This document shows positions 10,741 to 32,076 of a stretch of 35,120 nt of DNA, piece by piece. Under the pieces are notes generated by a model that worked only from the letters and a program-made list of their open reading frames with translations, searched no databases and had not been told where the DNA came from. The stretch covers positions 1-35,120 of the IMG/VR virus record IMGVR_UViG_3300010376_000089. One strand, written 5' to 3'. The position numbers were made by a program, and so were the translations under genes. The DNA comes from a virus (lineage: Duplodnaviria; Caudoviricetes). Position 1 is the first letter of the stretch; every line of letters begins with the position of its first letter.

Positions 10741-10749
10741 CAGTGCTGG

Positions 10750-16569: not shown

Positions 16570-16570
16570 A

Positions 16571-16677: not shown

Positions 16678-16848
16678 ATGGCCAGACTCATGACGAACCC
16701 ACAGCCCTCTAGTAAGGCGCAGATGGCTACCACTCGGCGCTCCAGGCCCGTAGCTGTCTTTGCAGTCTCCTCGATGGAGCGCACGCAGGGCACCGTTGAC
16801 GACGACAATCCCGACCAACCTGAGGCCGAAGATGACGATGCAGCTTAA
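16678..16848 (+). CDS. Small protein with acidic tail, possibly leaderless
   Basis: TTGGTC-N18-TAAGCT-7nt-ATG(16678); end overlaps the MTase start. Confidence 0.4.
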   Translation: MARLMTNPQPSSKAQMATTRRSRPVAVFAVSSMERTQGTVDDDNPDQPEAEDDDAA

Positions 16849-17404
16849 TTGGGGTCAGCGCTGGATAGGCGAAGTTGGCTTTCAGTCCTCGATCACTGAG
16901 AGCGAACGTGACCGACTGACCAAGCTGGCTACCGGCAAGCACGTTCTCGAGATCGGCTCCGCCTACGGCTACACCACCTGCTTCATGGCGCAGGTAGCTC
17001 TGGACGTAACCGCCGTGGACCCCCATGCTGGTTACGGCTCGATGCCCAACTCGCTCCCGGTGATGCAATCCAACATCAAGCTGCTCGGCCTCGAGAACAT
17101 CAACATGCTGATCAACACGAGCCAGGCGGTGCTACCCAGCCTGATCGACGCAGGCAATGAGTACGACCTCATCTTCATCGACGGCGACCATCGCTACTCC
17201 TATGCGCAGTTCGATCTGCGCCATAGCTGGCAGATGTTGCCCCGAGACGCCACGATGGCTGCGCACGACTATGGCGAGGTCACCTGCCCGGAGGTTATCC
17301 CCGCTGTCGATGACTGGGTCAATACGATCGATGACACCTACCTGTCCCAAGGTGAACCGATTGAGGTGGTCGACACACTATGGACGATCCTGCGGAGACA
17401 GTAA
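16832..17404 (+). CDS. Class I SAM-dependent O-methyltransferase (Methyltransf_24-like)
   Basis: VLEIGSAYGYTT, VTAVDPH, YDLIFIDGDH.Y, HDY...V..AVD motifs. Confidence 0.9.
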   Translation: MTMQLNWGQRWIGEVGFQSSITESERDRLTKLATGKHVLEIGSAYGYTTCFMAQVALDVTAVDPHAGYGSMPNSLPVMQSNIKLLGLENINMLINTSQAVLPSLIDAGNEYDLIFIDGDHRYSYAQFDLRHSWQMLPRDATMAAHDYGEVTCPEVIPAVDDWVNTIDDTYLSQGEPIEVVDTLWTILRRQ

Positions 17405-17583
17405 CCACCGGCACACTGATCCAGATGCGCTGCCCTCGATGCGGTGCGTTCAACTACTACAAGCGTAGGGTGGTCGATGTGGCCTTCCTCAACGATGCCC
17501 GCAACGAACTGCGTAAGACGGAGCGAATGCTGGCTGAGCTCATAGCTGTAATCGAGGAGTGGTCAGGAGAGAAGATCGAATGA
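17380..17583 (+). CDS. Small zinc-ribbon (Com-like) protein
   Basis: IQMRCPRCGAFN followed by a coiled coil. Confidence 0.55.
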   Translation: MDDPAETVTTGTLIQMRCPRCGAFNYYKRRVVDVAFLNDARNELRKTERMLAELIAVIEEWSGEKIE

Positions 17584-18089
17584 ACGGCCTGTCAATAGTC
17601 ATAGCGTCCTCCGGACGGCGCTCCCTGCGCTCGGTAGTAAACGGGATCATGGAGCAGATGCGCCCGGGGGACGAGCTCCTGCTCGACTACAACAACGACT
17701 GCCCCTATGGCAACAAGGCCCGCAATCGGATGATGTTGCGGGCTCGAGAGGGCAACGGCCTTGTCTTCTTCGATGATGACGACCGGGTCCTGCCAGCGGG
17801 ACTCAAGCTGATGCGTGAGGCATTTATCCACGACTCGGACCGCATGCACATCTTCAAGATCCACTTCGCTACCTGGACGCTGTGGGTAGAGCCGGTGGTC
17901 CGTAAGTCCAACGTCTCAACGCAGATGATTGTCGTCCCGGCCTCCTGGGCGATCTGTTCGAAGTGGGGCGATCGCTATGAGGGAGACTTCGACTTCATAG
18001 CTGGCCTGGCTGACCGCTTCGGCCATGACTCGATCGTCTGGCATGAGGAACTGGTAGCGATCCACAACGGGCTACGAGCTGCCGCCTGA
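17580..18089 (+). CDS. Glycosyltransferase family 2 (GT-A)
   Basis: LSIVIAS.GR..L, GNKARN, FFDDDD and EGDFDF motifs. Confidence 0.88.
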   Translation: MNGLSIVIASSGRRSLRSVVNGIMEQMRPGDELLLDYNNDCPYGNKARNRMMLRAREGNGLVFFDDDDRVLPAGLKLMREAFIHDSDRMHIFKIHFATWTLWVEPVVRKSNVSTQMIVVPASWAICSKWGDRYEGDFDFIAGLADRFGHDSIVWHEELVAIHNGLRAAA

Positions 18090-19726
18090 TGCCTGGCCGG
18101 GGGCTATCTCATGTCACCTGGCCCAGTCGTGCAACGATCTCAGTTGGCGGCTTCAACGTCCCCAGTAAGCCCGGGGCTCCTGGGAATGTCGGTGCGCTGG
18201 CGGTAGACAGTGCCGCTTCGGTCTTCTGGGATTACCCCAACGACAACCTCTCCCCGATCACCGACTACATCGTGCTGCCCTACATCGGGGCCACGCCACA
18301 GGCTCCGATCGATACCGGTGGGACTGCCACATCCTTCCTGGTGACTGGGCTGACCAACGGCGTCACCTACACGTTCTCGGTGATGGCGGTCAATGCCCTC
18401 GGGCAGAGCTCCTGGTCCGCTATCTCCAATCCGGTGACGCCTGGAGTCAGCGTTACTTGGTGGGACCCAAGCACGATGTTCGGCAGCTGTAGCTATGGCG
18501 GTGGAGAACGTGCCTCGGGCGTACCACCACCGCCTCGAATCCCTCCACAGCTCAACCTGACCTCGCTGGCCACAGACAACTTCCAGCGAGCCAACGCCAG
18601 CACACTCGGCACCGGCTGGTCGGCATTGCCCAATGGCTCACTGACGATCGCCTCCAACGTCTGTCAGTCGTTCTACAACGGTGGCTTCATCGGCAACTTC
18701 CGTAACACCGAGACCTACGACGCAGATCAGTACAGCAAGATCACCTGCGGCCCGATCAGCTCGAGTGGCAGCGACAGCATCGGACCGATCACCCGCTACC
18801 AGACCTCGAATGGCGCCTATTACACAGCACTCATCAACGGTTCCGTGACACCTTGGGGCACAGTGGCACTCTGGTATTACAACGGCAGCGGCTTTACACA
18901 GGTATCCGACCAGCCTCTCCTCACCGCTGCGACCTCATGTCTCGGCGGCAGCACGCCAGTCGTGGAGTTGGTCTCCGAAGGCAACCATCACACAATCCTG
19001 ATCAACGGAGTCTCAGTAACAGCCGTCTATGACGGCACGATCACAGGAGGCGTGCCGGGGCTGATAGCGATTGGCAATCCTCCCACCGCCACGGCCTGGG
19101 AAGGTGGCAACGCTCATACCGGCGCAGTCGGTGCAGCGCTACAGACAGACAACTTCAATCGCGCTGATGGCGGTGTATCGGTTGGCCAATCTGGCTGGCA
19201 GATACTGACCGGCTGGGCCGCAGGGGCAGGTGATCCGGCAATCGTTTCAAACCAGATCGTAATCACCGGCAGTGCTGGACATAAGGGAGTAGGACGAACT
19301 GAGGTCTACAACAACGACCAGTGGTCTCAAATAGCAATAGGTTCTGCGCAACTGGTCTACGGCCAACAGGGCTACATGGGCCCAATGACGCGGCTCTCAA
19401 GCAATGGGAGCAACGGCTACATAGCAACACTCAACATCACGAGCAGTGGGACCGGCTACGCATATGCGCTCTACAGAATCGACAGCGGCACGAACATTCA
19501 GCTGATATCCATCGATGCCGCAAACCATGCTGGAACTGCGCCCGACCCTGCCGCGACTCCCGCGATGCTGGTCTCAGTCGGAAGTCGACATTCGCTGCGG
19601 GTCGGTGGCTCTGAGATCTTCGCCGTCACCGACGCCACCTATGCAAGCGGCGTACCCGGATTCGGCCTCTATCAGCCATCCAGCGGAACGATCACAGCCG
19701 ATAACTTCGCGTGTGGCAACGTCTGA
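18089..19726 (+). CDS. Virion-associated FN3 plus tandem lectin-like beta-sandwich protein
   Basis: FN3 motif (PGAP.NV...W..P...SPITDY...TGLTNGVTYTFSV.A.N..G.S..S..SN.VTP) followed by two ~190-aa repeats, each starting TDNFxRA and ending GVPG. Confidence 0.8.
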   Translation: MPGRGLSHVTWPSRATISVGGFNVPSKPGAPGNVGALAVDSAASVFWDYPNDNLSPITDYIVLPYIGATPQAPIDTGGTATSFLVTGLTNGVTYTFSVMAVNALGQSSWSAISNPVTPGVSVTWWDPSTMFGSCSYGGGERASGVPPPPRIPPQLNLTSLATDNFQRANASTLGTGWSALPNGSLTIASNVCQSFYNGGFIGNFRNTETYDADQYSKITCGPISSSGSDSIGPITRYQTSNGAYYTALINGSVTPWGTVALWYYNGSGFTQVSDQPLLTAATSCLGGSTPVVELVSEGNHHTILINGVSVTAVYDGTITGGVPGLIAIGNPPTATAWEGGNAHTGAVGAALQTDNFNRADGGVSVGQSGWQILTGWAAGAGDPAIVSNQIVITGSAGHKGVGRTEVYNNDQWSQIAIGSAQLVYGQQGYMGPMTRLSSNGSNGYIATLNITSSGTGYAYALYRIDSGTNIQLISIDAANHAGTAPDPAATPAMLVSVGSRHSLRVGGSEIFAVTDATYASGVPGFGLYQPSSGTITADNFACGNV

Positions 19727-19732
19727 TGGGCC

Positions 19733-19993
19733 ATGAGGAGGATGTTGCGCAGGGAATCACTGCCACCGCTGGCATTGCAGTTACTTGGCGTTGCGATCGT
19801 CATCGCCAGTGTGGTCTTCTACTTCGTCACCCTTCAGGTCTCGCTGTACATCACCGGCCTGGGCTTGAGCCTGGCGACACTGGGCACGGTGCAGAGGTTG
19901 TTCGGATCACCTGAGGAAGCAGCACAAGCCTACGAAACGTCAACCAAGCGCAAAGTAATCTACCTACCCTCGACGGCAGAGGAATCCGAATGA
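19733..19993 (+). CDS. Two-TM membrane protein (holin-like topology)
   Basis: Two hydrophobic segments and a charged C-terminus. Confidence 0.65.
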   Translation: MRRMLRRESLPPLALQLLGVAIVIASVVFYFVTLQVSLYITGLGLSLATLGTVQRLFGSPEEAAQAYETSTKRKVIYLPSTAEESE

Positions 19994-20376
19994 GCACCGA
20001 GACACAAGCACTGACGGAGCTCAGAGATTCACTGCGTCGCTTCCGCAAGCAGATCGTATGGCTGCTGCTGCTGTTCATGATCAGCATGGCCGCTCTGAGC
20101 ATCGCCTCGCTGATCACCAACAATCAGGTCCGTCACGAGCAAGCGCAAATCCAACGCAGCCGCTACCTGGCCGCATACAACACCTGCCAGACTGACAAGC
20201 AGAAACGAGCTGCCTTCGTCCACCAGCTGACGAAGGATTTTCCCACGCAGGTCGGAGACAGAAACTTTCAGCAGCTGGTGGAGTTGATCTCCACGGTCGT
20301 CCCAGATCGAGGCGACTGCCGAGCCTACGCGAAACACCAAACACGACTTCCACAAGATGACAGGGGCACAGCATGA
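19990..20376 (+). CDS. Single-pass membrane protein with extracytoplasmic Cys pair
   Basis: IVWLLLLFMISMAALSIASLI TM, NTC...DC; ATGA overlaps at both ends. Confidence 0.7.
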   Translation: MSTETQALTELRDSLRRFRKQIVWLLLLFMISMAALSIASLITNNQVRHEQAQIQRSRYLAAYNTCQTDKQKRAAFVHQLTKDFPTQVGDRNFQQLVELISTVVPDRGDCRAYAKHQTRLPQDDRGTA

Positions 20377-20573
20377 GATGTTGCAGGAACGCTAGAGAAG
20401 TAGCAGTAGCCATCGTTCTGGTCGGGGTAGCACTGCCCGCCTCGAGCGCTCTAGCGAAGCACTCGAACAAGGTAGCCGCAGCACCCTCTCCAGCTACGAA
20501 GCTGGTGCTGGTTCGCACGTCCGGCAGCAAGCTTCTACCGGTCTTGCCGCCTCCGGCCAAGAAGCATCGCTAG
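20373..20573 (+). CDS. Small secreted basic peptide
   Basis: Signal-peptide-like VAVAIVLVGVALPASSALA. Confidence 0.5.
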   Translation: MRCCRNAREVAVAIVLVGVALPASSALAKHSNKVAAAPSPATKLVLVRTSGSKLLPVLPPPAKKHR

Positions 20574-20725
20574 GCCCTCAGCCACCCGTCGAAAATAGAT
20601 CCACCGGGTCGCCTCGCCTCTGTATGATGCCCCGCCGGTAAGGGCACGGAAAAGGAGGTGGGGCGCACCTCGGATCGGGGCGCAACGTTGAGCCGTTGCT
20701 GCAGTTTCGTATGGAGGTAGAAGGC

Positions 20726-21478
20726 ATGAAGTTCAAATCACTGGTCGCAGCTTTCGCTGCTGCGGCCGTCTCGTCTCTGGCTGTCGGGGGCATTGCGCTG
20801 GCCGCGCAGTCACAGACCCATCACAAGGTCGTCCACCACAAGGGTGGCGGCGAGAAGGGACCGAAGGGCGACAAGGGCGCACCTGGTCCTACGGGCCCTG
20901 CTGGGCCTGCCGGACCCAAGGGTGACACGGGTCCAGCCGGTCCCGCAGGTCCTCAAGGCCTACAGGGATTGATCGGACCAATCGGCCCTGTAGGTCCTGC
21001 TGGTCCAACGGGTCCTGCGGGACCAGCCGGTCCTAAGGGTGACACAGGCGCGACTGGGCCGATGGGTCCAGCCGGTCCAGCCGGTGGCTCGAACGCCAAG
21101 GAGTTCACGTACAAGTCGGACCTCTCAGGCCCGTCGACCGACGTGACCGACCTGGACGGCGTCAAGCTGCTGGCGTCCTGCAATGCCCTTGGTCGACTGA
21201 CCCTGACAGCGGTAGCGACCAACGTCGCTCCGGGAATCCTGACTGAGCGCGATGGCTTGGCATTCCAGATCATCCCGCGTTTCGGTACGGCCAACACGAC
21301 TGGTGCGTTCCTCGTCACACCGCTCTCGAGCGCGAGCTCTCGGGCGGACATTGAGGTCCACTATGTCTCCAACTCCGGACAGGACACCACGATCTCGATC
21401 GCGGCTGCTGACCTGGCGGATGGCCCGAATGGGCTGAGCGAGGCTTGCGTCGTGTTCGGTACAGCGACTACGTTCTAG
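20726..21478 (+). CDS. Secreted collagen-like protein with Sec signal peptide and globular C-terminal domain
   Basis: GGAGG RBS; [26 protein letters not shown] signal; about 26 Gly-X-Y triplets; two Cys in the C-terminal domain. Confidence 0.85.
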
Positions 21479-21552
21479 GGCTATGGCGTCCGAGGGTGGC
21501 TCGGACGCCTGCTTCTATCCCGATTGTGCGAGCTACAGCCACCTATGAGTCG

Positions 21553-21735
21553 ATGGGCGTCGTACACCCGGTGTTGCGGACCTCTCAGCTGGACCACATC
21601 ACGCTGGCGCAGGTTTACGCCTACGTCGAGCAGTGGCTCGAGGTTGCCCGCCCTGAGCGCGGTCTGCTGAAGATTGAGGTCGACTTCAATCCGCCTGTGC
21701 AGCTTTACGATCAGGCGATGCAGGACAGCGTATGA
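21553..21735 (+). CDS. Small hypothetical protein
   Basis: Globular-looking ORF at the end of the rightward cassette; start uncertain. Confidence 0.45.
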   Translation: MGVVHPVLRTSQLDHITLAQVYAYVEQWLEVARPERGLLKIEVDFNPPVQLYDQAMQDSV

Positions 21736-21915: not shown

Positions 21916-22068
21916 CGGGAGGGGTGGCCTCCCGCCCAGCTCGTAAATTCTCGCTTTTCGCTCGGAAATCGGTCGAAATGGCGTTTTGGCCATATTTCGC
22001 TGTCGAGACGGCCATATCGTCGGAAAACGTCGAAAAACTCGATTTTTGACGATTTTTCACGGTTTCTC
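21916..22068. other. Phased A/T-tract (intrinsically curved) non-coding region; candidate genome end/pac site or origin
   Basis: A/T runs start at 21945, 21955, 21966, 21976, 21984, 21994, 22024, 22033, 22042, 22052 and 22063; preceded by the CGGGAGG/CCTCCCG hairpin. Confidence 0.6.
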
Positions 22069-22100
22069 TCGCGACGCGCAGTCCGGGTGCGGTATCCGAG

Positions 22101-22141
22101 TTCGGCGAGACTCGTCGGGTCGCCCCCCGAGTCTCGCCGAA
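22101..22141 (-). terminator. Strong hairpin after 22149..22409
   Basis: TTCGGCGAGACTCG / CGAGTCTCGCCGAA 14-bp perfect stem. Confidence 0.7.
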
Positions 22142-22148
22142 TCGTTAC

Positions 22149-22409
22149 CTACTCGGCCGATGCGGCCGACGCCGCGACGCGGCGCTTGGTTTCGGCCGCT
22201 AGCCGCTGGCGGTACTTAGTGAGTGCCGCGCGCGCGCCGGGCGTGTCCTTCTTAGCCGCGATCGCCTCAGTAGCGGCCGCGACGAAGTCCTTATCGGACA
22301 TGGCCGCTAGCGCGTCAGCATCGGGATAAGTTGTCCCGCTTGCCTTAGCGGTGGCCGCGTCAAGTGCGGTGGACAGTTCCTGCAATTGATCTGCGATTGA
22401 CTTTGCCAT
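22149..22409 (-). CDS. Small Ala-rich helical protein, promoter-proximal family member 1
   Basis: GAAAGGA RBS, its own promoter and terminator; shares a motif with 24584..25078 and 30938..31483. Confidence 0.85.
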   Translation of the reverse strand: MAKSIADQLQELSTALDAATAKASGTTYPDADALAAMSDKDFVAAATEAIAAKKDTPGARAALTKYRQRLAAETKRRVAASAASAE

Positions 22410-22456
22410 TGTGGCTAGTCCTTTCTGGCTATTGCTAGCCGGTTGATGTGCCCCTA

Positions 22457-22484
22457 ATTATACATAGGAACGGACGGTGTGCAA
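22457..22484 (-). promoter_or_regulatory. Strong sigma70-type promoter P1
   Basis: TTGCAC-N16-TATAAT. Confidence 0.8.
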
Positions 22485-22601
22485 GGGTATTTGGTAGAAA
22501 GATTTGATGGTTGAATCGGGGTGGTCGGAGGGCACGAGGAGAGCCTACGATCGGTCGAATCGTCGCTCGTACGTACGCACGTGCATTTGAGCTCTCGTAT
22601 A

Positions 22602-22637
22602 CCGAGTCCGAGTTCCGAGTCCGAGCCGAGTCCGAGT
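22602..22637. repeat. (CCGAGT)n hexamer array 1
   Basis: Six units, preceded by CGCACGT-N9-CTCTCGTATA. Confidence 0.85.
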
Positions 22638-22707
22638 ACAGCGTACGTAGCTACCTACAGGCCACGTGCGATGCAGACTCAGCCTTGAGTATGTGATCGG
22701 TATGTGT

Positions 22708-23061
22708 TTACCAGTGGCGCACCGTCCACGGCCTGCCTGATGTGTGCCACACGTAGCCACTGGCGTCTGACTTGATCATCTGATCGAACATGACGTGCAG
22801 GCCTTGGCTGTAGATGACGAACTGGCCTTGGCACACATAGCCGCTGGTGCCATCGTATGCAGGTACGCACTTGACGTGTGTGGATACCACGTCATAGCCG
22901 TTCAGGCTCATTCGTGTACGTAGCTGCTTGTTGTAGCTGGTGTTGACGTGGCTTGCTACAGAGATCGTTGATCCCATAGCCGTAGCTGCAGGCAACGCCA
23001 CTGATGAGATCGCAACAATGAGAGCGATCGTTCCGAACACTGCACGCATGCTGATACGCAT
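22708..23061 (-). CDS. Secreted protein (signal peptide, Cys pair)
   Basis: GAAAGGAAG RBS before MRISMR; hydrophobic signal; KC...YVC. Confidence 0.75.
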   Translation of the reverse strand: MRISMRAVFGTIALIVAISSVALPAATAMGSTISVASHVNTSYNKQLRTRMSLNGYDVVSTHVKCVPAYDGTSGYVCQGQFVIYSQGLHVMFDQMIKSDASGYVWHTSGRPWTVRHW

Positions 23062-23188
23062 GTTTACTTCCTTTCTGTCCATCTCTGGACACGTTATGTG
23101 GGTTTGTTTTCCAGGGTCGATCTAACGCATCGCCCTTGCAACGCCGTCTGAGCCATTTTCGATTACTACTCAGGCGACGTTGGCAGGG

Positions 23189-23644
23189 CTAGTGCTGTAT
23201 ATACGGCGAGCCTGCGATTGGATTCGGTTTGCCGACGACACCATCCATGATGTAGCCGTCCTTGCACGACACTTGATACTCAGCCCACCAGTTGGTCGGA
23301 CTGAGCTCGTGTGCTGGTCCATCATCGAGCGCCACGCTGGCAATGCCCAAATGCTTTTCGCATGGCTCTTTTTCGACCCAGCGAATTTGTCGGCTGCGAT
23401 TTGCCCAGGATTGCAATTCGCACTGTGCGCAATACGGATGGTGTTGACGCACTGTAGTGGGCGTGGATGGATGCACGATGGCGTTCTTGATCGCGTTGAT
23501 TCCAAACGCCAGCCCAACGATGAACACGAGGAATCCGACCAGGAATTTCGTCCCGGTCGGATCAGCGTTGAGCCGCTTACGTTCCTCGTATCTGTCGATC
23601 TCCCGCAGATCAGCCTGAGTGATGCACCGATCTCGTAGCCACAT
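23189..23644 (-). CDS. Single-pass membrane protein with extracytoplasmic YxVxCxDG domain
   Basis: TM FLVGFLVFIVGLAFGI; four Cys; YQVSCKDG. Confidence 0.7.
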   Translation of the reverse strand: MWLRDRCITQADLREIDRYEERKRLNADPTGTKFLVGFLVFIVGLAFGINAIKNAIVHPSTPTTVRQHHPYCAQCELQSWANRSRQIRWVEKEPCEKHLGIASVALDDGPAHELSPTNWWAEYQVSCKDGYIMDGVVGKPNPIAGSPYIQH

Positions 23645-23647
23645 CGC

Positions 23648-23929
23648 CTAGCTGGCGTCGTCCCACGGATCAGTGTCCGGCTTCGGGAACTGCGGCATGT
23701 TGACCTCGACCGTCATGAAGTGCTCGTTCTGGCCACTGGGGTCGAAGCTGTAGATGCGCTGATCGCCGTCCTGCAGGTTGACCGCATCGCGGCCGATGTC
23801 GATGAATGCAGCCTCGACCGGATTGATCGTGCCGTCCTGGCTGAAGTTGACACGACCGATGGTTACGGTGATGTCAAAGCCCGTCGGGGCTTCGGTGGTC
23901 TTGCGGCTGTACTTAGGGGTGGTCGCCAT
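23648..23929 (-). CDS. Hypothetical protein
   Basis: AGGAG RBS; typical codon use. Confidence 0.75.
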   Translation of the reverse strand: MATTPKYSRKTTEAPTGFDITVTIGRVNFSQDGTINPVEAAFIDIGRDAVNLQDGDQRIYSFDPSGQNEHFMTVEVNMPQFPKPDTDPWDDAS

Positions 23930-23983
23930 TTCTGGCTCCTATCTCGCTCTCTCGAGCGGGTTGAGAACGGCTCCTTGTGAGCC

Positions 23984-24036
23984 GCCCTTGCGATGCTGTC
24001 TGAGCCTTCGAATCACTCAGGCAGCATCGGCAGGGC
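23984..24036. terminator. Long imperfect hairpin (terminator or RNase III-type processing site)
   Basis: GCCCTTGCGATGCTGTCTGAG...CTCAGGCAGCATCGGCAGGGC, about 20-bp stem. Confidence 0.55.
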
Positions 24037-24185
24037 TAGCGCTTCGGCTGGTCTCTGGCGATTGGAATGGCGTCCTTGCCATCCTTGCGTCGGAATTTGC
24101 ACTCGGGGCGATGGAACCGCGCTGCTGTGACGCCTGTGTCGCACGCCTTGCAGCGTTCGAACAGCTTTAGTTGCGGTTCCTTCAT
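24036..24185 (-). CDS. Small zinc-finger protein (49 aa; CKAC...HRPEC)
   Basis: Not in the ORF track; ATGA overlap with the GIY-YIG stop. Confidence 0.6.
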   Translation of the reverse strand: MKEPQLKLFERCKACDTGVTAARFHRPECKFRRKDGKDAIPIARDQPKR

Positions 24186-24511
24186 CGCTTGGCCTCTGCC
24201 TGGCAGACCGGACACACACGGGCGAGACCACCCATGTTCTTGAGTCGGCGCTCCTCGTAGCGGTTGCGGTTCTCCCAGATCCGCACGAGCGTCCAGCCAA
24301 TGCCAGCGGCCTTGACGTACTTGAGCAGGTTCGCGCCTGTACCTGCTTCGTGTTCTGCCAGTCGCTCCTCGAGCTTGCTGGCCCAGCCCATGTAGTGACG
24401 GGCATGCTTGTAGGGTTCATCGAAGTGCAGCAGGTAGACCGTGCCGTCACCTTCGTTGATGAGGACCTCGCTCAGCTTGCGAACGATCTCCTCGGTCATG
24501 AGAGTGGTCAT
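24182..24511 (-). CDS. GIY-YIG family endonuclease
   Basis: VYLLHF...HYMGW...RL..H..G.GA...ERRLK...CPVC. Confidence 0.88.
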   Translation of the reverse strand: MTTLMTEEIVRKLSEVLINEGDGTVYLLHFDEPYKHARHYMGWASKLEERLAEHEAGTGANLLKYVKAAGIGWTLVRIWENRNRYEERRLKNMGGLARVCPVCQAEAKR

Positions 24512-24583
24512 GACAGCCTTTCCGTCTCTTTCGAGACCTTGATTTGTGGAGGGCAGCCGTCGCACTCGGCTGCCCTGTGCTGC

Positions 24584-25078
24584 TTATTCCGTCTCGGCCT
24601 TGATGAAGGCCACAATCTGCTCGGAGGTCTCACCTCTTTGTTCGAGCAGTACGGCGATCTCTGTGGCGTTGCTCAGTGCCACCTTGCGATCGGGCATGTC
24701 CTCTGCCACGACCTTGGCGTACCGTCGCCAGCGCTCGAGTAGCACCTTGTAGAGATCCTCGACTGGACGCTCTGTCAGCGGCACTGGCCTGGGTGTCGGC
24801 GCTTGCTTTGGCTTCTGTGGACCGAGGGTGTCGGCCACAATTGGCGTCGGCGTGCGCTGGCTGACCCAATCTTGTTCGTGCGCCTTGCGGCCACCTTCCC
24901 TGAGCTCGGCGCGCTTGGCTTCACGTTTGGCCAGCCGTTGTTGCCTTGGCGTCTCGGCTGCCTCAGCAGCTTCGAGCTTGCCAAGCAGATCACTCAGCGC
25001 ACTCGGTTCGGCTGGCTTGATCTCAGCGTCGATCAGCTTATTCAGTTGTTCGAGCAGATCCTTCGGCAAGCCACTCAC
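24584..25078 (-). CDS. Helical protein, promoter-proximal family member 2
   Basis: GAAAGGAG RBS; first gene after P2; LTERPVEDL...ALSNATEIAVLLEQRG motif. Confidence 0.8.
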   Translation of the reverse strand: MSGLPKDLLEQLNKLIDAEIKPAEPSALSDLLGKLEAAEAAETPRQQRLAKREAKRAELREGGRKAHEQDWVSQRTPTPIVADTLGPQKPKQAPTPRPVPLTERPVEDLYKVLLERWRRYAKVVAEDMPDRKVALSNATEIAVLLEQRGETSEQIVAFIKAETE

Positions 25079-25169
25079 GGCTTGCTCCTTTCTCGGTCTT
25101 TCGACCGCTCGATATAGGGCTGGCCTGGGCGATTCCCGCAGGTTTTAGCCCTACTGTTTCCTTGCGCGA

Positions 25170-25197
25170 ATTATAGCCCATGACGTGCCTGACGCAA
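25170..25197 (-). promoter_or_regulatory. Strong sigma70-type promoter P2
   Basis: TTGCGT-N16-TATAAT. Confidence 0.8.
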
Positions 25198-25312
25198 TGG
25201 GGTTCGGCAGGACTCGATAGCGGACGCGAGGGGCACGAATCACGTGCCCACGACATAAACCCGGTAGTGGGCTCGGGTCGTCGTCACGCACGTTCGCGAT
25301 ACCTCTCGTATA

Positions 25313-25350
25313 CCGAGTTCCGAGTCCGAGTCCGAAACCGAATTCCGCGT
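25313..25350. repeat. (CCGAGT)n hexamer array 2
   Basis: Three exact and three degenerate units, preceded by CGCACGT-N9-CTCTCGTATA. Confidence 0.8.
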
Positions 25351-25474
25351 CGTTACTGAGCCTGCTTGGCACGCCGTTCGGATCTCCGCTTCTGTGAACG
25401 CCGCTTGGCTTGTTTACTACGATCGCCGTCTTCATCGACTGGACGCATGCGTAGCGTTTTCGATTGTGGTCGCA

Positions 25475-25726
25475 TCAGACGACCTTGAAGCCTGTCGCCG
25501 TGCGCTTGATCGTCCCGTAGAAGTCACGCTTCACATAGGGATCGGGGCCGACGAAAGTGATCGACTGACCAATCTCCATGCCGGTGATCGAACCGCTGAA
25601 GTCGTTGCCGAAGAACGATGTGGCCTCGACCTGCACGGTGTTGGGAGCATTCGCCGCAGCCTCGCGGATTGCCTTCTTGGACTTAGGTCGACTGCTGTTG
25701 ATGAAGATTCCCTGCAAGGGAATCAC
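25475..25726 (-). CDS. Conserved-looking small phage protein
   Basis: GAAAGGG RBS; RPKSKKAIREA...VGPDPY..R.FY. Confidence 0.75.
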   Translation of the reverse strand: MIPLQGIFINSSRPKSKKAIREAAANAPNTVQVEATSFFGNDFSGSITGMEIGQSITFVGPDPYVKRDFYGTIKRTATGFKVV

Positions 25727-25813
25727 CTACCCTTTCTAGCCTGTCGACGGCAGGCTTTACAGCCTCGACCGCCGTTAGGTCTTGTTCTCGACCTTGCGGT
25801 CGCTTGTGGATTG

Positions 25814-25972
25814 CTACAGGCCCGTAACGAGGTGCCAGTAGCGATGAAGCATCGTGAGAATCACCGGCTGATGGCGCTCAACGTACAACAGGTGGTTGTA
25901 TACGCTGAGCGCCGCGCCCATCTGATGATGGCCGTACAGCCAGATCGCACGATGTAGCTCGTTGAAGAGCAC
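25814..25972 (-). CDS. Small His/aromatic-rich protein (52 aa)
   Basis: Fills the gap after 25981..26334; MLFNELHRAIWLYGHH...; not in the ORF track. Confidence 0.45.
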   Translation of the reverse strand: MLFNELHRAIWLYGHHQMGAALSVYNHLLYVERHQPVILTMLHRYWHLVTGL

Positions 25973-25980
25973 TGATCAGA

Positions 25981-26334
25981 TCAGCGCCACGCCTTGAGCA
26001 CGTCACCCGGCTGGAGCTCGAGTAACTCGTTGGACATCTGATCCACGAACCGGTGATGCTTGGTCAGCGTCACCTCGCCGCTGTTGAGCGGTGTGTTCGC
26101 CAGTACGCCATAGGTGCACATCTCGAACGACATGCGCGGGCTAATAGCCGTTGGCTCATCGGGATAGCCCTGAGCGTTGAGCTGGTCACGAACTCCCTGT
26201 GGATCGGTCCACAGCGTGTCCTGCTCGGCCGGTAGATCGAGCACTGAGGCCATTGCCATTGCCGCTACGTGGAAATCCGTCCACGACAGCTTCAGCGGCT
26301 CTCCATCTCGGATGATCTGAGTTGAGAGCGGCAT
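25981..26334 (-). CDS. Hypothetical protein
   Basis: TGATG coupling with the upstream gene. Confidence 0.7.
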   Translation of the reverse strand: MPLSTQIIRDGEPLKLSWTDFHVAAMAMASVLDLPAEQDTLWTDPQGVRDQLNAQGYPDEPTAISPRMSFEMCTYGVLANTPLNSGEVTLTKHHRFVDQMSNELLELQPGDVLKAWR

Positions 26335-26636
26335 CAGTCGTTCATCCAGTTCGGGTCTGGCGACTCCTCGGGGATGACGCGAATGTCCACGTCACCCACG
26401 AGACCAATCAGCGCCGCATCGAGCGCAATGGTCAGCGCTCGTTTTGGTTCGAAGCACTGTGGTGCGCGTTCGACCGTATGGTTCTCGTGATCAACGATGA
26501 TGTCGGCGTGCCAACCATCGTCATCACGCCGGAGCCGAAGCTCCTTGGTTGCAGAGAGCTCGAGGATGCCGATGGGCACGACCTTGATCTTGCTCGAGAG
26601 CTCCATCGCCTCTGCTAGTGGCTCGAATTCAGCCAT
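26334..26636 (-). CDS. Hypothetical acidic protein
   Basis: GGAGG RBS; overlaps the upstream stop. Confidence 0.7.
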   Translation of the reverse strand: MAEFEPLAEAMELSSKIKVVPIGILELSATKELRLRRDDDGWHADIIVDHENHTVERAPQCFEPKRALTIALDAALIGLVGDVDIRVIPEESPDPNWMND

Positions 26637-27240
26637 TGTCTGTCACCTCCTCGATGGGTTGATAAAGGAGGGGTTCGAGTGCCTTGCGCTGCGTCCGGTA
26701 CTCGTAACCCTCGACGCAGTCACGAGCGGTGTCGACCCGCTGCTGGTTGCGAGGATCGACAGGACCCTCGTCCCAGTATTGGCTCACCACCTCGATGATG
26801 CGCCAATCCTGCTGATGGGCGTAATCCATCGCGCCCTCGGACGAGATGGCTCCGTTGGCGAACATCGTGTCCCGCCAGATGCCGAGGTTCTCGCCTTCGG
26901 TGTCCTCGAGGCTCCAGACATTCGGGAACCGATAGGACTGGATCAGCTTGACCCTGCGGCGTTCGTCCTCCTCATCCAACGTTCTGAGAACTGGATCGCT
27001 GGACGGGATCTCCATGGCTCCGATCACGCCGGAAGCCAAGCGCGGGATCACGTAGTCATCAAGCGTCCAACCGGCCTTGTCCTCGCCACCGATCACGACA
27101 CATGGAGCGATCCCTCTGAGATCGCCCATCTCCGCGAGCTTGTCGTGTGGCGCATAGCCGACGACCCGGTAGTTGTCCGGCAGGTACCTGGCGATCTGCT
27201 CGGCCCTTGAGTTGTTGAGTGAGACGATTGCGAACCTCAT
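26629..27240 (-). CDS. Hypothetical phage protein
   Basis: GAAAGGGG RBS before MRFAIV; YLP.NY.V and G.D.AGWTLDDYVIPRLASG motifs. Confidence 0.75.
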   Translation of the reverse strand: MRFAIVSLNNSRAEQIARYLPDNYRVVGYAPHDKLAEMGDLRGIAPCVVIGGEDKAGWTLDDYVIPRLASGVIGAMEIPSSDPVLRTLDEEDERRRVKLIQSYRFPNVWSLEDTEGENLGIWRDTMFANGAISSEGAMDYAHQQDWRIIEVVSQYWDEGPVDPRNQQRVDTARDCVEGYEYRTQRKALEPLLYQPIEEVTDNG

Positions 27241-27581
27241 TGGTTCCCCTTTCTGCCCGGTATGGGCAATAGCAACCACGTTGGACTGACGGGGCGCACT
27301 GGCCTACGTGCGCCCTCAGCTACGTCCAAGCAGTTGATCGTGTGAACGTTCTTATAGATACCCTGCCAGCGACTCCTACCGGCAAAGCCCGCGATCGTAC
27401 GTTCCATCGACTGCGGCTGGTTGGCCCTGAGAGGCTCTGGGAGCCTCGTAGCGGCCCTGCGCTGCGGCCAGCGGTGGTTTGAGTCGCTGAACTCTCCCCG
27501 GCCGCTGATGAGCCGCATACGCTCTCTGTCGAGCTGCTCACGAACCTCGCGGCAGCTCTGGAGGAAATTGACCTCGCTCAT
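27237..27581 (-). CDS. Hypothetical protein
   Basis: ATGA overlaps at both ends; its 3' part contains a hairpin. Confidence 0.45.
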   Translation of the reverse strand: MSEVNFLQSCREVREQLDRERMRLISGRGEFSDSNHRWPQRRAATRLPEPLRANQPQSMERTIAGFAGRSRWQGIYKNVHTINCLDVAEGARRPVRPVSPTWLLLPIPGRKGNQ

Positions 27582-28405
27582 GCCTCGGCCTCCTGCTGAG
27601 CCTTGAGCTTGTCGATCATCGCCTGAAGCTCCTCGACCGTCTCATCACCTCTGAGCGTGTCGGGGATCGGAAGCGTGATCTGATCGGTGTCCTCGACCTT
27701 CTGGCGGCGCTTGCCCGGTGTGTAGTTGCGGAACGACTGACGACACACCGGGCCAATGCCCTCCTCGACCGACTGTGCCGCCTTGAGCCTGCGATTGCAG
27801 ACGATGCAGCGGCCGTAGCGGATCGTCAGCGCCTTGGCCTTCTCGTACTCCATCTTGTACGAGGCCTTGAGCCGGTAGATCGCACCTCCGGCGTACTCGA
27901 ACTCGATGTTGACCCGGCCACCTTCCTCGAGCGCTCGGTCCGGATTGATCTCGACCAAGCGCTGAGCGTAGAGGTTCGTCTTGGCCTTGTTGAACTTGAC
28001 CCGGAAGACGGTGCCGTCCGGCATCTCATAGATGCCCGGCTCCTCGACAGGATCATCGTTCTTCGCCTGCACGGCCTTGCGATAGATCGCATGGTTGGGC
28101 TGATAGAGCTGGACGATCTTGCCAAGCGTCTCGGTCTTGAGGTTGCCTCGGCTGGTGAGGATGGTGACCTCTTCGCCCTCACGATCTCCGGCACCATCCG
28201 GGTGGATGACCTCGATGCACCAATCGTCCTTGCCACCCGTGGGCATGTTGACGTAGCCGTAGTGCTCCTCGACTATGCCGTCCTCGGGACAGCTCACGTG
28301 CATCACGCCGAACTCGCGTTGGTAGACGATCTGCTCACCGATCTCGACCGGGCACAGGCACTTCTTGCAGACGCCCTCTTTGGTTGACTTCATGATCTTC
28401 GGCAC
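27578..28405 (-). CDS. DUF6011 zinc-finger domain protein
   Basis: C-terminal RCIVCNRRLK...SVEEGIGPVC and N-terminal CKKC...HVSC. Start set at GTG 28405 after GAAAGGA. Confidence 0.8.
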   Translation of the reverse strand: MPKIMKSTKEGVCKKCLCPVEIGEQIVYQREFGVMHVSCPEDGIVEEHYGYVNMPTGGKDDWCIEVIHPDGAGDREGEEVTILTSRGNLKTETLGKIVQLYQPNHAIYRKAVQAKNDDPVEEPGIYEMPDGTVFRVKFNKAKTNLYAQRLVEINPDRALEEGGRVNIEFEYAGGAIYRLKASYKMEYEKAKALTIRYGRCIVCNRRLKAAQSVEEGIGPVCRQSFRNYTPGKRRQKVEDTDQITLPIPDTLRGDETVEELQAMIDKLKAQQEAEA

Positions 28406-28437
28406 TGCAACTTCCTTTCTCGCTCTTGCGAGCGTTT

Positions 28438-28453
28438 GTGCCAACGTTGGCAC
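28438..28453. repeat. 16-bp palindrome, copy 4 (intergenic, upstream of the DUF6011 gene)
   Basis: Exact match. Confidence 0.9.
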
Positions 28454-28469
28454 TGAGTTGACTGACTTA

Positions 28470-28736
28470 CTACCAGCTAGCGCTCTGCGTCACGCCATCA
28501 GAGCATGTCACTTCGTAGATATCGAAGCCTGAGCCTCCTCCCACTGTTCGCACGACCTTGACCGGATGCGAGTTGTATCCGCATAGGTACGGCAGTTGGT
28601 TGGATGGGATCGAACTGACGGGTACCTGCTCGCGCATGTCGTGGGGTTGGGCGAGCGATCCCCAGAAGGAGATCGCCGCCACAAAGCCCACGCCGAACCA
28701 GAAGAGCTTTCGGTAGACCCGAAAGAATCGGATCAC
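28470..28736 (-). CDS. Small membrane-anchored protein with YxVxCxDG domain
   Basis: N-terminal TM; LC...YEVTCSDG. Confidence 0.7.
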   Translation of the reverse strand: MIRFFRVYRKLFWFGVGFVAAISFWGSLAQPHDMREQVPVSSIPSNQLPYLCGYNSHPVKVVRTVGGGSGFDIYEVTCSDGVTQSASW

Positions 28737-30631
28737 GGCCTCTCCAGCCTCTCCAGCGTGTCCATCTCGTCGCTGTTCAGCGCAACGCCGTTGCCCGTTG
28801 AGTCGTACTCATCACGGACCACGAAGAACTCGCCCTCACCCTCGCCGGGTTCGATGACTCCGTAGATCTCATCGCCGTCGTAATCGACATAGCGGACACG
28901 ATCACTAGCGCGCAGCGGATTGCCGTACGTATCGCGACCAAGTACCGGATCTGCGACCTTCGGCCTCTCCGGCGTTCCTGGGCGCTGCACCACGATCCGG
29001 CCGACCTCATCCCCAGTCACGTTGCGGACCTCCTCGGACGTGAACCGATAGCCCTCGTCCTGCTTGATCCCGAAAGCGATCTTGTCGAGATACACCCTGC
29101 GACTTGGCCTCGCCTTGACGACCTTGCCTCTGGCGATCTCGATGCCGGTAGCGTCGAACAGCTTGACCTTGTCGCCCAGCCGGATCTTGATGCCCTTGTT
29201 GTCGACAGCCACAGCCTTGCGTGTGGTTCGCAACTCCTTGGCACTGAGCACCGTCAACGCCGGTTGAATCACCGGCAGCTTCATCGCCAGTTGCACGACT
29301 CGAGGGATATTGCGGAACAGCGCCACTCGATTCTGCTCGACCCGTTGTGTCGACCCAGGATCACCACCGTCGAACGCCATGTTCGCAGCAACACCGATCC
29401 GGTAGAGCTGCTGAGCGCTGCACTGACGAGCCAATACCGTGCGACCGTCGTTGGCAAAGATCATGTCTCCGCGATCGCGACCTGACGTGAACTCGCTGAA
29501 GCCGTTGATCGCCTCAGCCTCGAAGCCAATGCAGACGACCACAGCGTCATATGCACGACCACCGATGTAGACCTTGTCGAGACCCTCATCGGCAGACACC
29601 TTGTCATTGAACACCCGCAACCGCACGCGGCCCTCGTCAGGCCTACGCAGGAACGAGCCGATGTCCTGGTAGCGACCTCGAATGTTCTCGCGCCACTCCT
29701 CACAGGCATCGGGCAAACCGGTGGCGTACCAGTCGATCTGCTCGATCCAGTCAAGCATCGGCACTGACATGTGACGATTGGGCCCGGTGCCCAACAGTGC
29801 CTCGACCACGCACTTGCCGGAGTCGCCGCCACCAATGACCGCAATCCGGTTCATGTCACGGAATGGGAACGGCTGATAGAACAGCTTGGCGAAGTCATAC
29901 ATCGAGAGGATGCGCTTCGACCAGTCCATCCTGCCATTGCGATACGTCCCATTCGATGCCAGCTTGATCGGAATCCCCAGACCGCGTGCATCGATCACCC
30001 GGTCTGCGTAGACGAAGCCGTCACCCGATCCCACGCAGAACTTGCGGACACCGGCCACGCTCTGAATGCTGTTGACCGTGCCCTTACGAAGATCGGCGAA
30101 GCGCATCAGCGCCGATCGGATCACATAGGACAGCACGCTGTTGTCCTGGTACTTGTCCATGTTCAGCATCGAAGGCTGCACTGGACAACCCGGAATGACG
30201 TTGAGCGCCATCTCCTCGCTGGACAAACCAAGCTCACCTGGCCGGTTCGATGAGTTGAGCCGGAACCACGGTGCTGTGGAGAAGGCATCGCCGCCCAGCG
30301 TGTTCGTGATCACCAGTGGGCGTGGCTTGCCGGTCAGCACTCGTGCGGCACAATATGCCGCTGCTGTCGGCCCTCCACCGATAATCACCTCGTCGTAGCC
30401 GTTGGTGTCATCGTCAGCCCACTCAGTGGTCTGATCGAACATCGCCTCACGTAGCGTCTCCACCTCCCTCCTGGTCTCGAGCATCGCGCCCAGAGCCGTG
30501 AGGTACATAGCATCGTTGGTGGGGAACATATTCCTTCGAGGTTTGAGCTCACGGAGCATCGGGTTGCCCTTTGCCATCTTCTCGAGCACCGTCTGCTCTT
30601 GAATTGCGAGCCCTTGTGTGTCGACTGACAT
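28733..30631 (-). CDS. FAD/NAD(P)-dependent oxidoreductase (two-dinucleotide-binding flavoprotein) with C-terminal SH3/KOW-like repeats
   Basis: VIIGGGPTAA, VIDARG, IAVIGGGDSG and VVVCIGF motifs; C-terminal DNKGIKIRLGDKV and DTYGNPLRASDRV repeats. Confidence 0.8.
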   Translation of the reverse strand: MSVDTQGLAIQEQTVLEKMAKGNPMLRELKPRRNMFPTNDAMYLTALGAMLETRREVETLREAMFDQTTEWADDDTNGYDEVIIGGGPTAAAYCAARVLTGKPRPLVITNTLGGDAFSTAPWFRLNSSNRPGELGLSSEEMALNVIPGCPVQPSMLNMDKYQDNSVLSYVIRSALMRFADLRKGTVNSIQSVAGVRKFCVGSGDGFVYADRVIDARGLGIPIKLASNGTYRNGRMDWSKRILSMYDFAKLFYQPFPFRDMNRIAVIGGGDSGKCVVEALLGTGPNRHMSVPMLDWIEQIDWYATGLPDACEEWRENIRGRYQDIGSFLRRPDEGRVRLRVFNDKVSADEGLDKVYIGGRAYDAVVVCIGFEAEAINGFSEFTSGRDRGDMIFANDGRTVLARQCSAQQLYRIGVAANMAFDGGDPGSTQRVEQNRVALFRNIPRVVQLAMKLPVIQPALTVLSAKELRTTRKAVAVDNKGIKIRLGDKVKLFDATGIEIARGKVVKARPSRRVYLDKIAFGIKQDEGYRFTSEEVRNVTGDEVGRIVVQRPGTPERPKVADPVLGRDTYGNPLRASDRVRYVDYDGDEIYGVIEPGEGEGEFFVVRDEYDSTGNGVALNSDEMDTLERLERP

Positions 30632-30640
30632 TACCTCTCC

Positions 30641-30781
30641 CTACCGGCTAGCCGGGATCGTCAGGACCTTGCGGCCCTGGTTGAGTTGGACCTCTCGGAT
30701 CTGCTCTGCCTCGCGCTGGCTGCTGGCTCCAATCGAAGCCATGTGGTGGCCTTGCGCGTCGTACACCTTGACCGTGTACAT
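30641..30781 (-). CDS. Small hypothetical protein (46 aa, MYTVKVYDAQGHH...)
   Basis: GAAAGGAAG RBS; not in the ORF track. Confidence 0.65.
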   Translation of the reverse strand: MYTVKVYDAQGHHMASIGASSQREAEQIREVQLNQGRKVLTIPASR

Positions 30782-30845
30782 CTTCGACTTCCTTTCCGCC
30801 ACTCTCGTGGCTGTTGACCTGCTTACTTGCTCGTTTGAGCAGCGA

Positions 30846-30871
30846 AAGCGCGGGCCTCTCGGACCGCGCTT
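30846..30871. terminator. Intergenic GC hairpin after 30938..31483
   Basis: AAGCGCGG...CCGCGCTT, followed by T on the minus strand. Confidence 0.5.
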
Positions 30872-30937
30872 GCGTTGCCCAACGACAGGAAGGGCGCAGC
30901 TTGCATCAGCTACGCCCTTCCTTGAATGTCGTTGTGG

Positions 30938-31483
30938 CTACCGGCGACGCCGGTTGCCTGCGGGCTTCTCCTCGGTTGCCGTGGCCGTCGTGGCCTCGAC
31001 CGTCTCGAGCTCCTCGTCCGTAGGCCCCTCGGCCTCCGTGTCCGGCTGCACCGTGTCGGTGGCCTCCGGGATCTCCTCGGACTGACCCAGCCGCTTGGCG
31101 ACCTCCTTCTTCATCGCCTTGAGCCTGACGGTCATGCTGGACTTCTGTCCGGCAGTCGCGTCGTTGTACTCGGACTGGATGCGCTGGAACTCCTCGAGCA
31201 GCTGCTGTTCGGTCATGTCCTCCAGCGACATCGGCCGGTTGGCCTGCGGCAGCGGGGTGAACTCAACGCCGCGCTCGCGCAGCACCGTCTCGATCCGCTT
31301 GACCTTGTTGGTCACGGCCGCGCGCTTCTGCGGGTCGTCCGTGTCCGGCATGGCGACCCTCTCGGCCACCAGGTTGGTGTGACGCTCGAGCAGCGTATCG
31401 CTGTCGAGATCCGTGAGCTTCTCGCTTGTGGTGCTGAGCTTGCTCTGGAGCTCGGCTGCGAGTTCTTCCAACGTGAGTGCCAT
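30938..31483 (-). CDS. Helical protein with two internal repeats, promoter-proximal family member 3
   Basis: GAGGAGG RBS; first gene after P3; repeats LTDLDSDTLLE...RAAVTNKVKRIETVLRERG and LEDMTEQQLLE...KSSMTVRLKAMKKEVAKR. Confidence 0.85.
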   Translation of the reverse strand: MALTLEELAAELQSKLSTTSEKLTDLDSDTLLERHTNLVAERVAMPDTDDPQKRAAVTNKVKRIETVLRERGVEFTPLPQANRPMSLEDMTEQQLLEEFQRIQSEYNDATAGQKSSMTVRLKAMKKEVAKRLGQSEEIPEATDTVQPDTEAEGPTDEELETVEATTATATEEKPAGNRRRR

Positions 31484-31602
31484 GATGATGGCCTCCTCTC
31501 TGCCCCTTCGGGGCTGTCTGGTTATTGGTATCTCGTCGGGCTCGGCATAAACCCGGTAGTGCTACCCGGCTGCCTGGCTGCCCCCAGAGATACCCGCGCA
31601 CA

Positions 31603-31630
31603 ATGATAGCGCTTTACTGACTTACTGCAA
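31603..31630 (-). promoter_or_regulatory. Sigma70-type promoter P3
   Basis: TTGCAG-N16-TATCAT. Confidence 0.75.
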
Positions 31631-31744
31631 GGCAGTTTACCAGAAACGTGACTAGTACGCAAGAGGGCACGGCACAGAATCGTAAAGGTACGAAAGTGAC
31701 AAGTAACTGACCCCCACGTGAGCACTCGAGTTGCCACGGCTAGT

Positions 31745-31806
31745 CCGAGTCCGAGTCCGAGTTTCACGTCCGAGTCCGAGTCCATAGTTCCGAGTCGGGT
31801 CCGAGT
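31745..31806. repeat. (CCGAGT)n hexamer array 3
   Basis: Seven exact CCGAGT units with short interruptions. Confidence 0.85.
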
Positions 31807-31809
31807 CGT

Positions 31810-32076
31810 TCAAGGTTGGTTTTCACGTCCGAGTATTAGGCCGAGCGCGAGAGCTCTGGTTAGGAGGGATGCCACGAAGGTCACATCCTCCTCTGTCAGA
31901 TCGCCCGGGTATTGGACAAGGTTGCCCAACGCATAGTCGTGAGCCCAGCCGAACATGCCCTCCACGTCAAAGCCAAGATTGGTGAAATACGAGACCAGGC
32001 CGGGTCCCTCGAGTGCGGTGTTGGTGAGCTGGCGCTGACCTGTGAACGTCTTGTCTATGACCTCTCTGGTGATCAC
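31810..32076 (-). CDS. Hypothetical protein
   Basis: GTGA overlap with the ardA stop. Confidence 0.65.
   Translation of the reverse strand: MITREVIDKTFTGQRQLTNTALEGPGLVSYFTNLGFDVEGMFGWAHDYALGNLVQYPGDLTEEDVTFVASLLTRALALGLILGRENQP

Follow-up and report, generated by a model that had tools for sequence, protein, structure and literature searches.

CCGAGT-type repeat arrays recur at a near-constant distance upstream of predicted promoters in an uncultured soil phage

Introduction

What might a phage do with a short tandem repeat that returns three times at almost the same distance from a promoter-like sequence? The question is raised by the IMG/VR virus record IMGVR_UViG_3300010376_000089, a tailed-phage sequence of 35,120 nt that forms a single contig and is called the window here, at its full length. 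In its accessory arm, three modules each carry an array of CCGAGT-type units upstream of a predicted leftward promoter. A sequence-only reading of this DNA had suggested that the distance between array and promoter, rather than the sequence in between, is selected, and had proposed an enhancer or looping system, a protein-filament nucleation site, or recombination points that shuffle early-gene cassettes. We asked which parts of this arrangement can be confirmed, how they are kept in a relative and which explanation they favor.

The phage is uncultured, and both sequencing runs that hold the stretch (X1 and X2) are soil metagenomes. The comparison rests on L125, a related contig of 6,953 nt that is ~71% identical to the window over the shared part. 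L125 may stem from the same community as the window phage because run X1 also contains diverged contigs of a relative. Two further relatives, G001 and G002, are without the accessory arm, so the absence of arrays there is uninformative.

Results

The arrays share one orientation and a fixed promoter-side edge

The three leftward promoter-like sites of the sequence-only reading were all recovered on the minus strand where it had placed them, and module 3 was found to hold a fourth site, which it had overlooked.

22457..22484, minus strand: predicted promoter of module 1, TTGCAC-N16-TATAAT (motif scan)
25170..25197, minus strand: predicted promoter of module 2, TTGCGT-N16-TATAAT (motif scan)
31603..31630, minus strand: downstream predicted promoter of module 3, TTGCAG-N16-TATCAT; TTCGTG-N17-TATAAT in L125
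31634..31662, minus strand: upstream predicted promoter of module 3, TTGCGT-N17-TAAACT, its -10 preceded by TGn; L125 has the same two hexamers
22602..22637, plus strand: array 1, six CCGAG units at a spacing of 6, 7, 6, 5 and 6; the X2 contig is the same up to 22634
25313..25342, plus strand: array 2, three CCGAGT followed by two CCGAA units
31745..31834, plus strand: array 3, eight exact CCGAGT amid variant units; 11 successive GT cores, 5-7 bp apart

The arrays start at 22602, 25313 and 31745, all on the same strand. Re-measurement reproduced the distances first reported between array start and the first base of the -35 box, namely 118, 116 and 115 bp in modules 1, 2 and 3. Measured to the edge of the -10 box, they are 145, 143 and 142 bp, and 143 bp in L125. 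This promoter-side edge is fixed, whereas the opposite edge shifts, as does the gap to the upstream stop codon: array length ranges from 30 to ~125 bp, and the gap from an overlap to ~130 bp, the far end of array 3 running into the final codons of the open reading frame (ORF) 31810-32076. When the three arrays were placed at random within their own intergenic gaps, distances within 3 bp of one value arose with P ~0.0009.

CCGAGT is the sole hexamer with three separate clusters in the window. Order-3 Markov simulations gave at most one cluster for any hexamer in 300 of 300 runs and a CCGAGT cluster in 0 of 300. The total number of copies is in mild excess (34 against an expected 24.3 ± 4.9, with 3 of 100 shuffles reaching 34), and those at 22096-22156 fall in a hairpin that follows the last gene. 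What actually repeats is a GT core at intervals of 5-7 bp, variant units interrupting both array 3 and the L125 array. Consecutive GT cores number 11 in array 3 and 13 in L125, compared with 8 at most in 200 simulations. The profile of the unit is TCCGAGTC, GC-rich and with a period of 5-7 bp, and on the minus strand the unit includes ACTC.

A scan for CCGAGT clusters, proposed as a check along with the original observation, found every array within the window linked to a promoter-like site and none without one. The reverse does not hold, as arrays mark only a subset of promoters: the three linked sites are 3 of the 19 TTG-N-TAnnnT matches in the window, and array-less promoter motifs lie at 11921 of the window (kept in G001), at 39837 of G001 and at 2872 of L125. 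Contigs from X2, a run of another study, span 31499-31972 and 22427-22634 and agree with the window there in every letter, so arrays 1 and 3 are not assembly artefacts. The X2 contigs are without module 2, which is covered only by run X1, possibly the source of the record.

Several other properties of the modules were considered and set aside. A restriction-site decoy or cruciform was rejected, since 6-bp palindromes number 11 in module 1 but only 4 and 3 in modules 2 and 3 and 0 in L125. Z-DNA was dismissed as well, the single purine-pyrimidine run of 19 bp being confined to module 1, and a coding repeat was discounted because the array units are not in three-base phase. A minus-strand ORF does cross array 3 in the window phage and in L125; it is likely a by-product.

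The predicted array-linked promoters have weak -35 boxes

A strict sigma-70 scan of the window called none of the three array-linked promoters because their -35 boxes match only at TTG. These boxes (TTGC.., and TTCGTG in L125) are weaker than those of two array-less motifs in the relatives (TTGACT). The 16-bp promoter spacer, previously taken as a defining feature, had to be given up, given the TTCGTG-N17-TATAAT of L125. The upstream promoter of module 3 has a TG one base before its -10 box, which we take to be an 'extended -10', and lies 83 bp from the array in the window and 84 bp in L125. The two tandem promoters are 31 bp apart, or three turns, and, at 115 and 83 bp from the array, would therefore face it from roughly the same side of the helix.

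Two observations concern the array-less motifs. In L125, a long near-perfect hairpin at 2813-2860 stands directly upstream of the TTGACT-N17-TATAAT at 2872. The window promoter at 11921 faces the packaging genes, and just upstream of it, 12093-12518 encodes a zinc-finger and probable helix-turn-helix (HTH) protein that is 76% identical in G001 and could possibly be a late activator.

The spacer keeps its length better than its sequence in a relative

L125 holds an orthologue of module 3 with nine exact units in the same orientation. Its array is rearranged and lengthened on the far side only, the GT register being retained, and both the first array units and the -35 and -10 hexamers of the upstream promoter are unchanged. 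Between the upstream -35 box and the array there are 80 nt in the window and 81 nt in L125, at an identity of 38% ungapped or 50% gapped. Three neighboring intergenic stretches differ between window and L125 by -2, +7 and +8 nt. With these three as controls, the comparison is suggestive of a spacer that is best kept in length and least kept in sequence. The genes flanking array 3 come in the same order in L125, where a homologue of the gene at 25475-25726 occupies a different place.

Comparison among the modules revealed the following elements between array and leader.

22530..22536, plus strand: GGGCACG box of module 1, 73 bp from the -10 edge
22575..22601, plus strand: block shared by modules 1 and 2, CGCACGT-N9-CTCTCGTATA, directly before the array; not in module 3 or L125
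25231..25249, strand not applicable: GGGCACG box of module 2 with an inverted copy 5 bp away
25258..25269, plus strand: AACCCGGTAGTG motif in the spacer of module 2, with a second copy at 31550
31550..31561, plus strand: AACCCGGTAGTG motif, here in the predicted module 3 leader and retained in L125
31665..31671, plus strand: GGGCACG box of module 3, 62 bp from the -10 edge (69 in L125)

The CGCACGT-N9 element reported for modules 1 and 2 was found again and belongs to a common block of 50 nt that is 76% identical. The statement that the intervening DNA is unconserved proved too strong. GGGCACG lies 61-73 bp from the -10 box in 4 of 4 modules (the window holds six plus-strand copies, three of them in modules), CACG precedes each array by 24-30 bp, and the spacers of modules 1 and 2 retain a residual likeness (z 6.3, or z 3.2 without the shared block). 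Spacers 1 and 3 and spacers 2 and 3 are near random to each other (z 1.0-1.3, last 30 nt removed). In all four modules, no CCGAG or CCGAA occurs within 140 bp upstream of the -10 edge. Nor was an RNA fold common to the modules found: 15 of 16 z-scores lie above -1.3, only the module 2 spacer reaching z -2.6, and Rfam gave no match for the modules at gathering level.

Two of the three first genes encode an unnamed hairpin domain

The first gene behind each predicted promoter is as follows (aa, amino acids).

22149..22409, minus strand: first and only gene of module 1, 86 aa, one helical-hairpin copy at residues 33-77; homologue P0009 is 70% identical
24584..25078, minus strand: first gene of module 2, ~164 aa, function unassigned; homologue P0011 is 52% identical
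30938..31483, minus strand: first gene of module 3, 181 aa, two helical-hairpin copies and an acidic tail; the L125 orthologue is 64% identical

The shared domain is an unnamed helical hairpin of 50 residues. A profile of 52 repeats, from which the 86-aa protein was left out, finds the 86-aa gene at E 5e-6 among 51 sequences and at 1.8e-4 among 428 ORFs, the next window gene following at E 0.6. Judged by this profile, modules 1 and 3 begin with paralogous genes. The 164-aa protein resembled the domain by eye, failed the profile and was rejected as a member. A search of 1.84 billion representatives with a profile of the hairpin yielded 19 matches, and no Pfam family covers the domain. Matched stretches number up to nine in some family members, and an HTH match below the Pfam cut-off is present in two; P0017-P0021 and P0029 show the domain in many tandem copies, in two cases behind such a sub-threshold HTH. 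For each of the three first genes, a homologue is on record on a contig of 9,115 nt. This is probably a single contig, and it suggests that a third phage has this gene order.

The layout was found in a small clade

Scans of larger collections returned few candidates. A three-unit scan of viral contigs gave ~170 stretches; the 120 examined were mostly Ser-Glu or Ser-Pro coding, and none was related by tblastn. The array-plus-promoter pattern occurred at 9 viral loci and looked chance-like, L163 being a coding-type tract and L162 combining two units with a distant protease. At L159 4000-4031, in an unrelated phage, five similar units with a period of 6-7 stand upstream of promoter-like motifs at a shorter distance, which may be chance. 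Among 185,579 genomes, the same pattern was found at 41 loci, none with more than three units or a related gene, at distances scattered between 100 and 125 bp. A box-plus-array pattern gave 11 loci, all chance-like, and the 16-nt junction of modules 1 and 2 a single, unrelated locus. Scans of viral contigs for related loci with the 181-aa and 632-aa proteins had no matches, module 3 matched none of 50,697 annotated phages, and a metagenome scan covering 21 of 64 parts recovered the window's own record and L125.

Genome setting and other features of the region

Capsid, protease, portal and terminase genes occupy 1629-9030 on the minus strand, and a plus-strand block at 13905-21735 holds collagen-like and modification genes. 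The accessory arm runs from 35077 down to 22149 on the minus strand and contains mainly unknown genes plus ArdA; its promoters and genes would be early, to judge from gene content and host-type promoter motifs. According to protein records, there are ~90-kb assemblies for the window phage and one relative. The best annotated matches of ArdA and of a DUF6011 protein are mostly in actinobacteriophages, at 30-41% identity, a weak hint at an actinobacterial host.

A perfect 16-bp palindrome, GTGCCAACGTTGGCAC, recurs at 3645, 10926, 13617, 28438 and 32634 of the window, at 448, 10143, 22615, 39672 and 45774 of G001 and at 4497 of L125. Some copies are at the same positions in window and G001 and some lie inside genes; the palindrome is operator-like or partition-site-like, and its other viral matches were single and unrelated. 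Apparently non-coding tracts of five-base periodicity (RCC at intervals of 5 or 10 nt) are present at 10270-10750 of the window and 1500-2800 of L125. The L125 tract, 1.3 kb long and without a match in Rfam, carries a GGGGAACC-like motif each ~50-70 nt and is rearranged yet present in G001. Where the plus-strand and minus-strand gene blocks converge, 21960-22145 shows phased A/T tracts (period 10) and two hairpins, possibly a terminator, bent DNA or a genome end. The collagen-like gene is split over two overlapping frames, 13905-14669 and 14356-16569, which hints at a frameshift or an assembly slip, and its front resembles the protein at 258-872. Two further proteins have no Pfam or PHROG match: the 127-aa product of 24182-24565, which by eye resembles a GIY-YIG nuclease, and the 632-aa product of 28733-30631, which by eye has two GGG dinucleotide-binding-like motifs and whose N-terminal part is kept in L125.

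Discussion

We tentatively favor, at somewhat less than even confidence, the explanation that the array is an upstream docking site for a protein that acts on the promoter via a loop or wrap. The fixed promoter-side edge and its recurrence in L125 fit the enhancer, looping or protein-coating ideas of the sequence-only reading. A small DNA-binding protein would gather in many copies on the GT-cored units spaced 5-7 bp and, some eleven helical turns above the -35 box, would control a predicted early promoter of host type by looping or wrapping the spacer. A protein bound ~150 bp above a start reaches the polymerase only if the DNA is bent, which is why a loop or wrap would be needed. A role at the DNA level, on the downstream promoter, is indicated because the fixed edge faces that promoter and both array length and the gap to the stop codon vary. 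Activation appears slightly likelier than repression, given that the -35 boxes next to arrays are weaker than those of the two array-less motifs in the relatives, and the GGGCACG box could serve as a near contact point. The lead candidate for the binder, at the level of a guess, is the hairpin protein, whose gene comes first behind two of the three promoters and would turn the module into a self-regulating cassette; a host protein is as good a candidate. The more specific proposal that the hairpin domain is a tandem-repeatable DNA-binding domain, which would polymerise on a GT lattice of 6-bp period and act as an enhancer for a housekeeping-sigma promoter eleven turns away, seems to us distinctly unlikely.

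A number of results weigh against a docking site. Module DNA has been seen for four modules from two phages only, and the length of the module 3 leader is kept as well (-2 nt between window and L125). Units 5, 6 and 7 bp apart are ill-suited to a rigid filament on double-stranded DNA, and the characterised arrays cited below have longer and more regular periods. The promoters are without a unit copy, hence a simple two-operator loop is not evident, and their near-consensus -10 boxes may fire without an activator. As for the binder, the hairpin domain was not detected in the 164-aa module 2 protein (profile E 2.9), is near neutral in charge and has no recognised DNA-binding fold. Fold searches with the model of the 181-aa protein gave nothing at E 0.001 or Z 8, the best hits (Z 6.5) being generic hairpins and ribosomal uL29. 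Among 52 window proteins and 25 G001 proteins, the search turned up no ribbon-helix-helix (RHH), ParA or MerR-type gene, the genome being incomplete.

The main rival is inheritance without selection: an ancestral cassette of repeat seed, promoter and hairpin gene would have been duplicated, slippage would have resized the arrays and the distance would simply have been passed on under little or no selection. Paralogy of the first genes of modules 1 and 3 is two-edged here, for it offers a candidate binder and at the same time shows that the modules share one ancestral cassette, to which the 50-nt block and the residual spacer likeness between modules 1 and 2 also point. The phage group moreover has another low-complexity periodic tract. 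Common descent alone can hold a distance: in simulations of neutral indels, whose rates were assumed, all four distances were kept with P 0.26 at one indel per lineage and 0.09 at two. The near-random spacers 1/3 and 2/3, however, imply time for several indels, at which P falls to 0.02 (four) and 0.007 (eight), and the unit is still recognisable though the spacer has been overwritten. We consider inheritance alone rather unlikely. Of the earlier claim that distance is kept over sequence, the keeping itself stands, with 143 bp in L125 against 142 bp in the window across a spacer at most 50% identical; selection on it is unproven, the drift probabilities running from 0.26 to 0.007.

The arrays might instead act as RNA, read-through transcripts binding a multimeric RNA-binding protein that stops or steers transcription before the next promoter. 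Short cores at flexible spacing are recognised in single strands by TRAP, and the 5-7 nt spacing of the GT cores would be typical of such recognition. A terminator scan called zero sites in the three module intergenic regions, whereas the array-less promoter at L125 2872 has its long upstream hairpin, and the hairpin domain resembles ribosomal uL29 in shape, below significance. Yet the fixed edge is turned toward the downstream promoter and not toward the upstream stop codon, and the modules have no conserved RNA structure, so that we regard a role as RNA as quite improbable. Iterons or primase sites of transcription-activated replication origins are the least likely explanation of all and in our view a very poor prospect. 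GTC, the core here, is a primase triplet known from T7, and a gene for a Prim-Pol primase is present in G001. The T4 origin oriE combines direct repeats with dependence on an early promoter, but the same review notes that no origin activity was ever linked to the T4 iterons (PMC3016281). The three copies here lie within 9 kb, their units are short and unevenly spaced, and no marked skew switch was seen at the arrays in 2-kb bins.

Recombination cassettes of the PeSL kind, shuffling early genes, would fit an accessory arm that is variable and in which promoter elements recur. T4-type phages provide a precedent (PMC2839356, PMC4122927), and a homologue of gene 25475-25726 sits elsewhere in L125. 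The flanking order of array 3 is nevertheless the same in L125, and the loss of two genes there begins beside the GTGCCAACGTTGGCAC palindrome at 32634 instead. No contig of the two runs joins one array to another, although contigs drop rare forms; homologues of the three first genes are together on what is probably one 9,115-nt contig; and shuffling does not require a fixed distance. The proposal that the arrays are recombination points found no support, and we hold it to be very improbable.

Comparison with known systems

That the architecture was not recognised from any described phage agrees with our literature search, which found neither motif nor layout described in the main texts of open-licence papers and preprints. 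The layout appears so far confined to a small clade and, as far as sequence comparison goes, matches no known system. Regulator-coated repeat arrays and phase-dependent loops do have precedents (PMC3130281, PMC5859096, PMC12266134, PMC4207663). The ParG operator parH/OF of TP228 likewise has clustered short degenerate boxes upstream of a promoter, and the ParG box ACTC is found within the minus-strand unit (PMC3130281). Its spacers, however, are AT-rich and 4 bp long in a regular 8-bp period, compared with GC-rich DNA and 5-7 bp here, and the operator represses the adjacent parFG in the presence of an RHH and ParA pair (PMC3130281), whereas the arrays here stand ~115 bp above the -35 box. Pfam and PHROG searches found no such pair in two protein sets of the window (52 and 50 proteins) or in 25 selected G001 proteins, the genome being incomplete. 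Rco of pLS20 shares with our modules a cluster of direct repeats at a distance from the promoter (OI/OII), and phasing matters for it; its motif is present at both promoter and distant site, 75 bp apart across a static bend (PMC4207663). The modules, unlike Rco, have unit-free promoters, a larger distance and a design repeated three times. Their natural distances of 142-145 bp would agree with control that a half-turn insertion abolishes.

The BldC family and Gp36 of mycobacteriophage D29 bind one-orientation direct repeats of variable number in actinobacterial and actinophage regulatory DNA; the BldC unit is AATTXXXXC (9 bp) and the Gp36 repeats carry GCGGC, compared with TCCGAGTC here (PMC5859096, PMC12266134). 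No MerR-like winged-helix gene was matched among the window proteins and 25 G001 proteins of this incomplete genome. The PeSL elements of T4-type phages are repeated host-type early promoter elements among unknown genes (PMC2839356, PMC4122927), which the predicted promoters of the modules would resemble; the modules differ in having no conserved stem-loop, far less similar copies and, in the one pair compared, a gene-content break outside them. The iterons of T4 oriE are evenly spaced repeats of at least 12 nt (PMC3016281), a regularity that the arrays lack. Clade-specific intergenic repeats of unknown function include the 17-bp dyad of Cluster O and the Microbacterium EC/EF/EG/EI motifs, which are scattered as single sites and for the most part are dyads or linked to start codons, in contrast to promoter-tied tandem arrays (PMC4351075, PMC7302621). 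The separate 16-bp palindrome of the window is a closer match to these dyads than the arrays are.

Sigma-54 enhancers occupy sites 100-150 bp upstream and reach their -24/-12 promoters by looping. The promoters here are of the -35/-10 type, and the window protein scan had no match to an enhancer-binding ATPase; the -24/-12 motif itself was not searched. Control of an ordinary -35/-10 promoter from ~150 bp upstream is uncommon, and the compared arrays sit on or beside their promoters. If the array were merely an inherited tract, its value would be that of a clade marker. The modules also point to a protein domain without a name or a Pfam family, which comes as a single copy, as two or as many in tandem, in some cases following an HTH-like segment. 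Compared with the systems above, this phage presents a compact module in triplicate together with a natural variant in a second phage, and thereby a ready test of dependence on distance and phase.

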